Below the pieces are notes generated by a model. The model was given only the letters and a program-made list of their open reading frames with translations, ran no database searches and was not told the origin of the DNA. Shown here piece by piece: positions 2,335 to 28,135 of a stretch of DNA of 64,000 nucleotides. The stretch is from a virus (taxonomy: Duplodnaviria > Caudoviricetes), in the IMG/VR virus record IMGVR_UViG_3300032216_001476, positions 1 through 64,000 of that record; one strand, given 5' to 3'. Each line of letters opens with the position of its first letter. Positions within the stretch are counted from its first letter, which is position 1. A program made the translations under genes and the position numbers.

Positions 2335-5300
2335 TATGGTACTATGTTTACTGCACCATTATTATTCCATAAATCCCCCGATGCTAATCCTGTGGTGGAT
2401 GTGGGGAGGGAAGACATGCGAACTTTTCCTGTTGTTTTTAATGCTCCTGCACTTGCTGCTGTTCCACTAGTACCATCAACCTCTAAACGATAACCGATAT
2501 CTGTATAAGTGCCACCGTTTTTGAGTAAGACATTACCAGTATCACCAAAAAGTCTAAATCTCTCCGTTTGTGAAGTTGTTGATGTTATTCTAAAGTGTGC
2601 AGTTGATGTGTTGTTGTATAGAATTACGTTAAAACCATTAGCACCACTTGATGTAAATGCTACTAAATTTCTTTGGCTTGTTCCAACCCAACTTGATCCA
2701 AATATTTCTAATGCTCCATATTCTCCAGCAACATCATTTTTAATAACAATAGCAGATTCCCCAGTTGAACTTGTATTTGTTACTTTTAAATTAACGGCAC
2801 CACTTGAACCAACTGATTTGCTTATTTCTAAATCAGTCGTAGGACTTGCTGTCCCAATACCAATATATCCTGTATCACCTTTTACTATTAATCTTGTTGC
2901 GGAGGTCTGCAAAGTTGTTCCAGTGGTAATTTTTGTAGATGTGGTCAATATCACATCACCAGGAGTACCTGTACCCCTACCTCTACCACCTGCAAGAATT
3001 AAAGATCCTCCAGATATATTATTGAAAAAAGCCAAATTTGCACCTCCACCCGCTATTGTAGCAGCAGATGGATCATAAACAACCTCAGAACCATGTATTG
3101 TATAATCAGGTCTAGTTAATAAACCAGTACCTCCATTACCAAACCACACATCAAAAATCTTTGTGTCGTCACTACCAAACATTACGACATTACTTAAAGA
3201 ATCTGGGATTGTATCATTTCGGTAATCTCCTATAGCAGTTAATGGATTTTTCCATATAAAAGAATTACTAATTGTTTTATTAGTCCCAGAATTAGCACTA
3301 AGGCTACCTGTCCAAAATCCAGAACTTCCATTTTGCAAAATTGTTGATTTAGTAATAGTTGCACTAGTGGCTGATATTCCATATCCAAAACTTCTTCCTA
3401 TTACTAAAGAATCTGTATAGTATATCGTTCCAGTAGGATATCCAAAACCAGAACCAATAGTTGTGGAATTATTCATTACAGTATAACCTTGACCACCAGT
3501 TATATCTCCTATTGCAATGTTTATATTAGTCCAAGTTGCGGTATGGTAGTCAAGGTTACCAAAAATATAGTTAGTACCAGTACCCATTGTAAGCTCAGAA
3601 ACATAATCACTATTATATAATGATGTGAAGTATAAACCTTTTGCTATAGCACTCTTCCTGTTAAATGTCAGTTGCCTACCTGAGAAGTTAGCTCCCCATA
3701 CAACACCTGCATTTGTAATTCCACCAAGAGAACCGATATTATATACAGAAACACCTCCTGTATCTAAAGTTTGCGGAGCAAATGAACCTGTACTTGTTGG
3801 TGTCAAATTTGTATCCGTAAAAGATATACCACCGTAAAAAGAATAAAAAGCAGTGTATGTCCCTGATACGGTGCCTCTGTAAATTCTAAAATTCTTAAAA
3901 CTACCAATATAAATATTAGTAATAGCAACAGATCCTGTTGTTACTCCAGCTCCAATCACTGCTGAATACTCATTAGAACATCCTGCTTGATGACCATTGT
4001 TATCAAGTGCTACTATACGATAATAGTATGTTCCCGTAGTGAGTGTACCACCTGTTGCGTTACCAGTAACTGTAGCTGTAATTGCTAAAGTAAAAACATT
4101 ACCTACACCTAATGCTGTACTAACACCACTAGTACTTGAAACTGATACTAGACCTGTAATATCATTATAAGTCCCATTTGGTGTATTCAAAACAAGTTTA
4201 TCACTTGCACCATTTCCTAAACTGAGAACATGATAAGCCCCTGATCTAAAGTACACACCTGTTTCATTTTGTTCAATACTTGACCAAAAGTTACCAGTAA
4301 ATCCACCACCTCCGCCAACAGCTCCTGGATTTCCTGCAGGTCTTAAGATTATCTTAGTACCATAGTTGCCATTTTTTATAAACTGAATGACACCATCTAT
4401 CTCAGGATTAAGAGTATTGTTAGCAGCACCATAACCAAAACTACTTCCAAACACAACATTCATCCCTGATGTACGTAAATCAATTGTATTAACACCCGTA
4501 AAAGAACCTGCAGTGTAAGTTGTGTTTAAATCAAGTGCTATTAGTTTGTCATTATTATGACTTGCTACAAGTGTGTTAGCAAAGTTTATACCTTTAACAT
4601 CTACGCCACCAGCAGCCAAAACTGATGCAGATGCTGCAGTGTGTATTATAGAGGTTGGAACTATGTTTATACCAAAGCGGTTGCTACTATTAAATACAAA
4701 TTGAGTGTCATTTCCTGAATTAGCTCTTATGATAATTTCAGTACTGTTCGGTTTTTTAATTCCCCAGGTAAAATCTGTACGACCATTAAACAATAAGAAG
4801 GCATCATTTTGTAATGCTAAAACATTAAACTCACCAAGGTCAGTTGTAGTAGTTTTATTGGAAGTGCCAAATTGAATAGCTCCGTTAACATCTAGTTTAA
4901 TTGTATTAGTGGGTACAGATGAATACCCTATATAAGTACCACCACTTGTACTATTTAGTAGTACATTACCTCTTACAGTTTCAAGAGCAGTAAGTACCCC
5001 AGCATTTGTAGTAATATTAAAATCAATAACCAATGCTTTACTATTACCAGCTTGTGTACCTGTATTAACAGGCATTAAAAGCTTTAATAGCGTTGTAGTA
5101 AAGGCACCACTGTTTATTGTCGGGTTACTTGTAGTAAACAAAAACCTAGTTTGATCAGTACCATAACCTAGTGAACTATTAGTAGTAAATGTTAACTCAT
5201 TAGCATAAATAGTCTTGCTAGCTGAGGTTGTTCCAACAAATGCAAGATAATCATACAAGAACAAAGCTCCGTTAAACTGAGTTCTAGTATTTACAATGAA

Positions 5301-25393: not shown

Positions 25394-26047
25394 TTAGATG
25401 TTATACTCGTAATCTAGTATAGCTCCCACTAAGTCAGACCTGTGGTTTTCTTTGAGTTTGATATATTCTATACCCTTGAGCTTCTTAGACATTTCTATAA
25501 CGTATTTAAGACCATTAATACCATTATCCCTGATATCGGTTTGTTCTAGGTCTCCATTTATTATAATCTTACCTGTCTTACCAAGTCTAGTAAGAATAGC
25601 TAACATCTGTGCTTTGGTGAGGTTTTGTGCTTCCTCCACTATAAGTATATCATCTATAGTTTTACCCCTAATAAACTGCACAGGATATGCTTGTACTTTT
25701 TGATCTTGTATAAGTTGTGTTATCTTCACCTTATCATAGCACTTGGTGAGGTTTTCCATAAAAGCCTCTAAATAAGGATTAAACTTCTCTGTTAATCCCC
25801 CAGGAAGAAACCCCAAAGAATTACCCACCTCTATAGTGGCTCTAGTAACATATATAACATCTATCTGTTTCTTAAAGAGAAAATCTAACGCAGCTTGTGC
25901 AGACACTAAAGACTTCCCACACCCAGCTCTACCAGTAATAATAACTATTTGATTTTCCACTATAAGTTTCTTAGCTAACTTCTGCTCATCATTAAGTTGC
26001 AATTGATACTTAATATCAGTTTTACGTTCTCTATTTGGTTCCTTCAT
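25394..26047 (-). CDS. phoH: PhoH-like ATPase
   Basis: GRAGCGKS, LGFLPG, RGKT, EEAQN, LTRLG, GDLEQTD, HRS; likely start MKEPNR at 26047. Confidence 0.95.
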   Translation of the reverse strand: MKEPNRERKTDIKYQLQLNDEQKLAKKLIVENQIVIITGRAGCGKSLVSAQAALDFLFKKQIDVIYVTRATIEVGNSLGFLPGGLTEKFNPYLEAFMENLTKCYDKVKITQLIQDQKVQAYPVQFIRGKTIDDILIVEEAQNLTKAQMLAILTRLGKTGKIIINGDLEQTDIRDNGINGLKYVIEMSKKLKGIEYIKLKENHRSDLVGAILDYEYNI

Positions 26048-26067
26048 ACTACTAATATACAAATAAT

Positions 26068-26259: not shown

Positions 26260-26544
26260 ATGAAACTTGAATTGAAAGTATCGAAGTGTACCTTAAACAA
26301 CAAGAAAAATGGATACGTACTTTCCCTCCGTACAGAGGGAAAGAAAGTTGAGATTTTTCCTGGAATGTTTAAGGAAACACCAGGTCAATTGTTCTTAATG
26401 TCTTTCAAACATCCTATTCCCGAAGGAACGCCCACATCAATTGATTTGGATTTATTCCAAATCAAGGAAGACAAGAGTATTGTGAAGGATAGAATAACTG
26501 GCGAGGACATTACCTTGACAAACAAGTGGCTATGGCTCAAGTAG
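26260..26544 (+). CDS. First early gene, hypothetical (beta-rich)
   Basis: A-rich leader, followed by a terminator. Confidence 0.7.
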   Translation: MKLELKVSKCTLNNKKNGYVLSLRTEGKKVEIFPGMFKETPGQLFLMSFKHPIPEGTPTSIDLDLFQIKEDKSIVKDRITGEDITLTNKWLWLK

Positions 26545-26555
26545 AGCCACTTGTT

Positions 26556-26592
26556 AATACCACACTGCAGAAATGTAGTGTGGTATTTTTTT
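26556..26592 (+). terminator. Intrinsic terminator
   Basis: AATACCACACTGCA-GAAA-TGTAGTGTGGTATT plus T tract. Confidence 0.8.
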
Positions 26593-26599
26593 AGCTAAT

Positions 26600-26630
26600 T
26601 GACTATGTCAGTGCAAGTGACTATGTCAGT
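26600..26630. repeat. Tandem palindromic sites TGACTATGTCAGT x2
   Basis: Exact 13-mers at 26600 and 26618, each containing TGAC-N3-GTCA. Confidence 0.75.
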
Positions 26631-26769
26631 ATAAAAAGTTTTAAATTTTTAATTAAACAAACGTTATAACTAATTGATAATCAGTTAGTTATGTGTTAAT
26701 TTGTGTGTGCTAGGTATTCTCAACATCCTATCATCAATTCACAAAAAACACCTAATCTCACTAAAAATA

Positions 26770-26787
26770 GTGGATTAGATAGCTATA
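26770..26787. promoter_or_regulatory. 18-bp operator-like motif, copy 2
   Basis: GTGGATTAGATAGCTATA. Confidence 0.55.
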
Positions 26788-26973
26788 TAGTATTAATGCG
26801 TCATAACCATCTTCTCAAGGGATGGCAGATGTATATACTCTTGAGTAAGTCCTAAACTTAATTGTTACCAGTAAGCCTTACGTGGAATTATCGCCACAGA
26901 TGTAAGCATGGTGTTTAGGGTTCTAGTGTTTAATCACAAAAGAGTATATACAACTGAACGCAGAGAGATACTA
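26788..26973 (+). ncRNA. Twister ribozyme (type P1) with large P5 insertion
   Basis: P1 TAGTAT/ATACTA, UAA, P2 TGCG/CGCA, P4 CCATC/GATGG, loop (T)TCTCAAGG, 3' GA-GAG pseudoknot partner. Confidence 0.75.
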
Positions 26974-27107
26974 GTGTATACATAATACAACCAAGCCGTG
27001 AAAATCTATCAGTCCTGACCGTCTATGTACGAGGAACCAGAAACAAGTTTTCTGCTATTAGGAATTATGGAGCTGATATCTCCCTGGTTAATGTATTGTG
27101 TATACAC
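26974..27107 (+). ncRNA. Candidate multi-stem ncRNA
   Basis: 16-bp closing helix GTGTATACATAATACA/TGTATTGTGTATACAC with internal hairpins. Confidence 0.55.
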
Positions 27108-27142
27108 ACCTTTGTTTTTATTAATCACCAAATTCATATAGT

Positions 27143-27337
27143 ATGAATGTATTAGTTGAACATTATGTAAGATTGAGTAATGGTAATACCGAGTATAAAA
27201 ATGGTAAACCAGTAACAACCACCACTGTACTCAAGCTTCCGATTAAATTTGGATATGATCATTTTAGCAAACCTATGGTTGTGTTAAACCATAATATCCA
27301 AGTAGAAGATATAGTTAATATAACTCAGGTTGATTAA
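27143..27337 (+). CDS. Hypothetical early protein
   Basis: ORF between structured modules. Confidence 0.55.
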   Translation: MNVLVEHYVRLSNGNTEYKNGKPVTTTTVLKLPIKFGYDHFSKPMVVLNHNIQVEDIVNITQVD

Positions 27338-27340
27338 TTA

Positions 27341-27500
27341 TATCTGAATACTCACTCTATCTGATCAATAGAGACTTTGCTATCGTGGCATTGTAAAATA
27401 AGAGTTATGGGTAACAACCATAAATGTTTGATATGACTCGAAACAAGGGTGAAGACCGTCCTAATAGGGTAAAACTAATCCTGTAATCAAACTTCAGGTA
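27341..27500 (+). ncRNA. Candidate multi-stem ncRNA
   Basis: TATCTGAA/TTCAGGTA closing stem; hairpins CTCTAT/ATAGAG and TTATGG/CCATAA; stem GTTTGAT/ATCAAAC. Confidence 0.45.
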
Positions 27501-27540
27501 AATTTCTTTTCTGTTAATTATTCACCAAACTTTAAATAAT

Positions 27541-27699
27541 ATGTCTACATACAATGAAGTAGAAAGACTAATTGATAAACTCCTAAAAGCAAAAATGGAG
27601 TTTGAAGAGGACTATCAAAAAGGAAAACTTGATGAAAAAACATTTGCGTTACTATGTGACTTTATTGACGCAAGTGTTATAATGTTGTCAGAGTCTTAA
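27541..27699 (+). CDS. 52-aa hypothetical protein
   Basis: Manual translation MSTYNEVERLIDKLLKAKMEFEEDYQKGKLDEKTFALLCDFIDASVIMLSES. Confidence 0.6.
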   Translation: MSTYNEVERLIDKLLKAKMEFEEDYQKGKLDEKTFALLCDFIDASVIMLSES

Positions 27700-27871
27700 A
27701 TTTTTTTACCATATAATGGATGCATACGTTATATGGTAGTTTAACCACTATAATCAATTTATTGATTATCACTAAAGTCACTGTATTTATACAGAATATG
27801 TGTGGTGGTTTAAACAAGCAAGTAGACAAAATCGCACCTTGCTTCTATTTTATATGTAAAACTTAAGTCCC

Positions 27872-27973
27872 TGGAAAGGGTTTCTCCGATTGTAGGCTAT
27901 GGAGTGTAATATAAAACAACCTTCCAATGGTGGTAACGAATCCACCCATCCTGAGCATGATGTAAAACTGCTT
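27872..27973 (+). ncRNA. Candidate ncRNA ending in an H-type pseudoknot
   Basis: TGGAA..GGTT/AACCTTCCA, GGTGG/CCACC, then CATC-CTGAGCAT-GATG-TAAAAC-TGCT. Confidence 0.5.
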
Positions 27974-28009
27974 ATAGATTAGTATTTTTTGTTTTTGTTT
28001 GTTTAGTAA

Positions 28010-28110
28010 ATGAAACACAACATCCCTAAAAAGGAGAAATGTTGAGCTCTCTCTCATCGGGGATACTATACTGTATAGTTAGCATAAAGAAGTCCCTTGT
28101 TGTGTTTCAT
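28010..28110 (+). ncRNA. Candidate multi-stem ncRNA
   Basis: Perfect 13-bp closing helix ATGAAACACAACA/TGTTGTGTTTCAT. Confidence 0.5.
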
Positions 28111-28135
28111 ATTTTTTAATCATTAAACCTGAAAT

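Follow-up and report, generated by a model that had tools for sequence, protein, structure and literature searches.

A predicted type-P1 twister ribozyme with a greatly extended P5 arm at the start of the early genes of an uncultured phage

Results

Genomic setting of the element

The DNA stretch analyzed here (the window) covers the initial 64 kb of a record of 95 kb from an uncultured virus. The presence of terminase, portal, major head and DNA polymerase genes identifies the source as a tailed phage. Its structural genes are located on the minus strand and end at a PhoH-like gene (25394-26062), and small plus-strand ORFs are found from ~26260 onward. The element that we characterized comprises 186 bases (26788-26973, +) at the start of the phage early genes and shares the plus strand with the ORFs downstream of it. 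Two terminator-like hairpins are located upstream (26533-26587). Just 3′ of these hairpins and ~160 nt upstream of the element, a 13-nt direct repeat, TGACTATGTCAGT, occurs twice (26600-26630); the copies are 18 nt apart and each contains the palindrome TGAC-TAT-GTCA. This repeat pair looks like an operator. On the 3′ side a helix-closed structured module (26974-27107) adjoins the element with zero spacer, and its closing strand GUGUAUAC could extend helix P1 (see below) as an alternative pairing. An ORF (27143-27337) begins 36 nt 3′ of this module, so that 169 nt including the module separate the end of P1 from the next ORF start. No homologues of the downstream modules (26974-28130) were found among the fetched loci.

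Arrangement and fold of the element

In twister ribozymes the stems P1, P2 and P4 and the pseudoknots T1 and T2 are essential, and P0, P3 and P5 are optional (PMC5408937; PMC11662667). The original prediction had proposed such a double-pseudoknot arrangement for this site, and reading the sequence directly we found each of the claimed helices and pseudoknots, all on the plus strand. P1 pairs UAGUAU (26788-26793; TAGTAT in the DNA) with AUACUA (26968-26973). Its 5′ strand is followed by the junction U-A-A (26794-26796) with the predicted scissile bond U26794/A26795, A26795 being the counterpart of the general-acid adenine. P2 consists of UGCG (26797-26800) and CGCA (26959-26962). The 5′ strand of T2 (PK1), UC (26801-26802), pairs with G26820 and G26819, which gives one G-C and one G·U pair. 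The linker L2, AUAA (26803-26806; AYAA in the main subgroup, alignment A1), leads to P4, in which CCAUC (26807-26811) pairs with GAUGG (26821-26825). P4 is capped by the 9-nt loop L4, UUCUCAAGG (26812-26820; TTCTCAAGG in the DNA), which holds both the 5′ strand of T1, CUC (26814-16), and the 3′ strand of T2, GG (26819-20). On the 3′ side of the element, the P2 strand is preceded by a conserved AA (26957-26958; alignments A1 and A2, AG in a second subgroup), where the Rfam twister-P1 consensus reads ..UAAA. The subsequent G-A (26963-26964) is invariant in A1 and aligns with the GA of the Rfam consensus GAGGG; G26963 is the counterpart of the general-base guanine (O. sativa G45). The 3′ strand of T1 (PK2), GAG (26965-26967), which complements the CUC in L4, then leads into P1.

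The long arm between P4 and P2 is P5. Its 5′ strand (26826-26842) is composed of CAG (26826-28), an unpaired A and a 13-nt helix strand, and its 3′ strand (26940-26956) of a 13-nt helix strand, an unpaired A and CUG (26954-56). The two unpaired nucleotides form an A·A mismatch (26829/26953) beyond CAG/CUG. The perfect 12-bp helix that had been claimed for P5 is present, GTATATACTCTT (26831-42) pairing with AAGAGTATATAC (26940-51), and extends to 13 bp when T26830-A26952 is counted. It encloses the distal branched domain of the P5 insert (26843-26939), taken from the minimum free energy (MFE) fold and specific to this phage. An unguided MFE fold of the element yields P1, P2, P4 and the long P5 helix (-54.7 kcal/mol; z=-3.05, with 0 of 200 shuffles reaching an equal value), and the fold of the minus strand is weaker than that of the plus strand.

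In a fold of the 50 nt upstream, an AU-rich hairpin (26752-26778, +) appears 9 nt upstream of P1. It may represent the optional P0 hairpin described for twisters (PMC11662667). The region 26693-26735 was considered as a second twister: it mimics the 5′ half (UAA, 4 nt, UG, then a hairpin with CUCAACA in the loop). This candidate was rejected, as it has no 3′ partner and its loop differs in L002, the closest relative; the resemblance is probably due to chance.

Relatives in phage and metagenome contigs

Relatives of the element were found in uncultured phage and metagenome contigs, at least 57 copies in all. Among 39 loci fetched via the PhoH-like neighbour gene, L003 carries a homologue with a canonical T1 (CCC/GGG), three compensatory changes in P4 and a shorter P5. 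Pattern scans of viral and metagenome contigs, in which the inner three P4 basepairs, P1 and P5 were left free and later also the letters of T1 or T2, yielded 35 distinct copies and then more; about half of the metagenome pattern matches were chance. A search of the same loci with R1, a covariance model of the nested stems, gave further divergent copies and a total of 57. Genomes usually carry one copy, sometimes two or three in tandem, and one strong copy was found in each of five phage records including that of the window. BLAST of the region against deposited phages and an exact 32-mer search of viral contigs gave no match. The 5′-half pattern revealed no family member in 185,579 species genomes. 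In total 21 genome-contig pattern matches were rejected as chance, mostly involving one conserved protein-coding gene of gut bacteria: in L255-L274 the 5′-half pattern matches a conserved coding gene of Collinsella, Ruminococcus and other gut genomes by chance.

The motif alone is weak evidence, because a relaxed descriptor with no constraint on P1 or P5 produces ~0.85 raw matches per shuffled 95-kb genome; in the actual 95-kb genome its sole match is the site described here. For the predicted element we regard the comparative evidence as decisive: R2, a covariance model built from 55 copies with the window left out, recognized a single site in the 64-kb window (26787-26974, +) with 80.1 bits and E~1e-25, and this leave-one-out score of 80 bits falls within the range of the family. 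The element thus genuinely belongs to a conserved family of RNAs.

Covariation and conservation

We counted basepairing on the alignment of all 57 sequences. T1 and T2 were absent from the model structure, and the alignment was therefore not fitted to the pseudoknots. T1 is nevertheless 100% paired, with C-G in 48, A-U in 4 and U-A in 2 sequences at the middle pair and C-G in 53 and A-U in 1 at the third. T2 is 99.1% paired: the first pair is U·G in 41, C-G in 14 and U-A in 1, the second is always C-G, and the last base of L4 varies together with its T2 partner. This agrees with the 5′ strand ‘NC’ reported for PK1, for which wobble pairs are tolerated (PMC11662667). Among the nested stems, P2 is 99.5% paired with one pair alternating between G-C and A-U, P4 is 99.6% paired with all five pairs covarying, and the eight conserved pairs of P5 are 97-99% paired with seven covarying. 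In P1, evaluated on 35 sequences, 32 sequences form the innermost pair and 26 its neighbour; the sequence varies, complementarity is kept and the inner pairs covary. None of 500 shuffles reached any of the observed measures, and sliding the 3′ partners reduced pairing to 33-50%. Covariation in 57 homologues, which extends to both pseudoknots, thus gives strong support to the twister fold of type P1 with its double pseudoknot, as proposed originally. The U·G pairs in T2 and P1 would be C·A mismatches on the opposite strand, which identifies the plus strand as the RNA strand.

Conservation extends to the putative active site. The AA after the scissile position is invariant in 35 sequences, and the preceding nucleotide is mostly U (32 sequences), with C in two cases and A in one; owing to this invariant N-AA junction, cleavage is predicted between U26794 and A26795. 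The family retains both the A at the cleavage site and the G of the general base, and the position of G26963 is invariant in A1. This agrees with the published ‘NA’ rule for the cleavage site and with the catalytic roles assigned to A7 and G45 (PMC5408937; PMC11662667). The window copy departs from the consensus at two pairs of P4 and at the middle pair of T1, and all of these departures are compensated: its CUC/GAG T1 is a double compensatory change and one of the two U-A cases. Every invariant position of the family is intact in the window. The L4 consensus is UUCCCAAGG, compared to UUCUCAAGG in the window. An extra nucleotide in L4 had been pointed out as unusual; it is present (9 instead of 8 nt), but it is a family-wide trait and not peculiar to the window copy.

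Searches with Rfam models

The original prediction had named an Rfam twister match after removal of the insert as its criterion; judged by L165, a natural homologue nearly free of an insert (see below), such a match stays sub-threshold. The window with its insert gave no twister match, either with the gathering cut-offs or with the limit relaxed to E<=10. Likewise, no twister match was obtained at E<=10 for L003, L088 and L194, and searches of the five phage records with RF03160, RF02684 and RF03154 found nothing. The best score within the family came from L165, which reached a sub-threshold 18.8 bits with twister-P1 (cut-off 67.2). Its E=0.11 over 4227 families corresponds to ~3e-5 for that one family named beforehand. 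L165 aligns with twister-P1 end to end over P1, UAA, P2 and GAGGG, and the inner 37 positions are skipped by local ends. The model expects P3, and the family carries P5 instead; skipping of the core would be expected when a model with P3 followed by P4 meets a sequence with P4 followed by P5. We also looked for canonical twisters for alignment with RF03160 and RF02684 in 151 Clostridia genomes and found none, so that the comparison of the inner core rests on the P4/L4 of the rice ribozyme from the literature.

Inserts in P5

Beyond the conserved 8-bp stem, the copies carry P5 inserts of 6-125 nt, each closed by a long helix. The insert measures at least 25 nt in 55 of 57 copies; the exceptions are L165 and L194b with only 6-7 nt. 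Apart from a few small groups of related ones, the inserts are mostly unrelated in sequence. The window insert is among the longest and ranks second in size among the 35 copies that were parsed first. It has no homologue in the ~275 fetched loci or elsewhere in its own genome and matches no Rfam family. The idea of a ‘cargo’ in P5, part of the original prediction, hence finds no support: nearly all relatives have inserts, their lengths differ, their sequences are mostly unrelated and that of the window is without a homologue. Most likely, the 125-nt insert is an expansion peculiar to this lineage, which the ribozyme tolerates but does not require.

A ~90-nt three-hairpin module lies inside P5 in L217 (848-938, +), L238 and L170. 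The same module occurs free-standing and helix-closed upstream of the ribozyme at L003:2922-2990 (-) and L181:1027-1117 (-). P5 can thus capture independent modules; Rfam matched no family to this one. A further phage contig, L142, carries an array of 13 tRNA genes (29-1813, -), and the P5 insert of its twister (4449-4582, +) contains a T-arm-like sequence, GGTTCAAATCC. A tRNA-like reading of this insert was rejected, as Rfam calls no tRNA there.

Genomic context of the family

All copies are intergenic and co-oriented with the flanking small ORFs. The flanking proteins are mostly unrelated between loci, and no conserved partner gene was found among them. For 16 of 33 copies the distance from the ribozyme to the next ORF start is 14-49 nt. 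This pattern of a ribozyme just before the ribosome-binding site is not directly applicable to the window, because the ORF is 169 nt away and the module 26974-27107 lies between.

On the 5′ side, a GC-rich hairpin with a U-tract abuts ~20 of 57 copies, the U-tract being the 5′ strand of P1. Such flanks end exactly at the start of P1 in L181, L183, L214, L238, L088, L171, L250, L254 and others. The hairpin with its U-tract would be either an optional P0 or a terminator. At these flanks, termination and read-through with subsequent cleavage would give nearly identical 3′ ends of the upstream RNA.

Tandem copies are located at L060:9875-10476 (-), L171:2420-2686, L194:1580-1828 and L249:1165-1492. 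These arrays consist of two or three copies, separated by 24-106 nt that contain no ORF; the array of L060 is followed by an ORF start at a distance of ~37 nt. If every tandem copy cleaved itself, units of ribozyme plus P5 of ~150-250 nt would be released.

The distribution among close relatives is patchy. Only 4 of the 39 loci syntenic with the window carry a copy within 4 kb. L002 is the closest relative by its PhoH-like neighbour (95% amino acid identity), and its nucleotide homology with the window ends at 26791, the 5′ edge of the ribozyme. At L002:2300-2520 (-) there remain a helix similar to P5 and a 3′ half that resembles CUGAA-UAUA-GAGAG; P4 and L4 are missing and the covariance model does not match. 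This stretch has the look of a ribozyme that has decayed in place. With only a remnant in L002 and copies in 4 of 39 syntenic loci, the RNA is dispensable.

Discussion

We assign 26788-26973 (+) to the twister class: it is probably (about 0.8) a self-cleaving ribozyme of type P1 that lacks P3, has a greatly extended P5 and belongs to a phage subfamily. In a high-throughput assay ~94% of the predicted natural twisters cleaved (PMC11662667), and, judged by the family comparison, the element is very probably a real self-cleaving twister RNA. Points that speak against this assignment are the Rfam scores below cut-off, the dispensability of the RNA and, in the window, the 169 nt with a structured module ahead of the next ORF.

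One alternative, which we consider unlikely, is a twister-shaped relic that no longer cleaves and serves as a structured leader or has no function. It would account for the patchy distribution and the apparent decay in L002, and the window copy does show the rarer U-A pair in T1, the A·A mismatch in P5 and one of the largest inserts. However, all departures from the consensus in P4 and T1 are compensated, which indicates that selection still maintains the fold. The catalytic A and G are intact together with every invariant position, and the leave-one-out score lies inside the family range. Moreover, P5 stem-loops are experimentally well tolerated: all assayed twisters with P5 cleaved above 0.80 (PMC11662667).

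Other readings place the function in P5. We give little credence to P5 as a docking site for independent structured RNA modules, which the ribozyme would scaffold and, in tandem arrays, excise as discrete small RNAs. If this were true, the unique 97-nt branched domain of the window (26843-26939) would have a function of its own in the phage: it might act as a decoy or a sensor or bind a protein, and it would be delivered with a 5′-OH end when infection has only just begun. Unlikely too is a P5 domain that is itself the functional part, either as a ligand or protein sensor that switches cleavage or as a scaffolded RNA payload that the ribozyme helps to release. The prevalence of inserts of at least 25 nt, the three-hairpin module found both within P5 and free upstream, and the tandem ribozymes of some phages, whose cuts would release discrete RNAs, are consistent with such a role. 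The inserts range from 6 to 125 nt and are mostly unrelated, though, so that they have no aptamer in common, and L165 and L194b manage with 6-7 nt. The window insert has neither a homologue nor an Rfam family, its fold is one MFE prediction, and with a single ribozyme in the window nothing cuts on the 3′ side. Finally, a chance match or a DNA-level inverted repeat (a recombination or protein-binding site), as might be suspected from the raw matches in shuffled genomes and the many palindromes of this AT-rich region, is effectively refuted by covariation and the R2 score (E~1e-25): pairing is kept while the sequence changes, and strand-specific G·U pairs and two pseudoknots would be meaningless in duplex DNA.

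For the self-cleaving twister that we favor, we infer cleavage and its biological effect from the fold, the conservation of this fold and the catalytic residues, which are seen directly in the sequences. In the full 186-nt transcript P1, P2, P4 and P5 would form, and L4 would dock via T1 (CUC 26814-16/GAG 26965-67) and T2 (UC 26801-02/GG 26819-20). Docking would set the U26794-A26795 phosphodiester beside G26963 as general base and A26795 as general acid. Attack by the 2′-OH of U26794 would then generate a 2′,3′-cyclic phosphate on a short leader and a 5′-OH on A26795, and the weak, AU-rich P1 of 6 bp would allow release of the leader. The downstream early RNA would start with a compact pseudoknotted fold and a 5′-OH end; it would be separated from upstream transcription and probably protected from decay that depends on the 5′ end. 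Cutting of the early transcript and definition of its 5′ end, as suggested in the original prediction, is a putative role that fits the position and strand of the element. According to reviews, twisters of bacteria and phages still have no known role, the leading idea being processing of polycistronic RNA (PMC6765202). The element fits an accessory, exchangeable processing element that heads variable early-gene blocks.

The family adds a well-supported, phage-only branch of at least 57 copies to the twisters, which is invisible to Rfam-based annotation. In this family P5, an arm rarely found in twisters, accommodates a branched RNA of more than 100 nt with the core still under selection, a tolerance that is useful for ribozyme descriptors and for choosing insertion sites in engineering. 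It also offers testable clues to the biology of phage ribozymes: positions at the head of an early operon, flush with terminator-like hairpins and at the border of a mosaic region, and in some cases an arrangement in tandem. No new catalytic class or mechanism is revealed.

Comparison with known ribozymes

The twister-sister ribozyme (RF02681) resembles the family in its P4-loop sequence and is also phage-borne. It lacks a double pseudoknot (PMC6154101), in contrast to the family, in which T1 and T2 both covary. As both pseudoknots are supported by covariation and RF02681 gave no match at E<=10 for the window, L003, L088, L165 and L194, we rejected this identity.

The appropriate reference is the twister of type P1 (RF03160; Roth et al. 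2014 as reviewed in PMC5408937 and PMC6154101), with rice Osa-1-4 as the minimal P1 form. The published stems P1, P2 and P4 are present in the window and covary in the family, and the elements follow in the same order: P1, U-AA, P2, a 2-nt T2 strand ending in C, P4 with L4 of the type ..CCCAAG.., and on the 3′ side AA, the second strand of P2, G-A, a 3-nt T1 strand and the second strand of P1. T1 pairs L4 with the 3′ side of L1, between G-A and P1; T2 is a 2-bp helix of ‘NC’ after P2 with the 3′ end of L4. The N-A junction with its conserved adenine lies directly 3′ of P1, and the conserved general-base G directly 3′ of the P2 3′ strand. Pseudoknots, junction and general base are thus identically placed, and P0 and P5 have the positions given in the literature. 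The L4 consensus corresponds to that of rice, TCCCAAGC (PMC11662667), apart from one extra 5′ U, which makes it 9 instead of 8 nt long. Further differences concern the peripheral stems: P3 occurs in 78% of known twisters and P5 in about 1% (PMC6154101), whereas the family has no P3 and carries P5 in every copy, with 6-125 extra nt. In addition, the first T2 pair of the family is U·G, C-G or U-A, where the Rfam consensus has G at the 5′ position. All Rfam models score the phage family below threshold (gathering cut-offs of RF03160, RF03154 and RF02684), and the family was seen only in phage and metagenome contigs. We conclude that the element extends the known twister class and does not found a new one.
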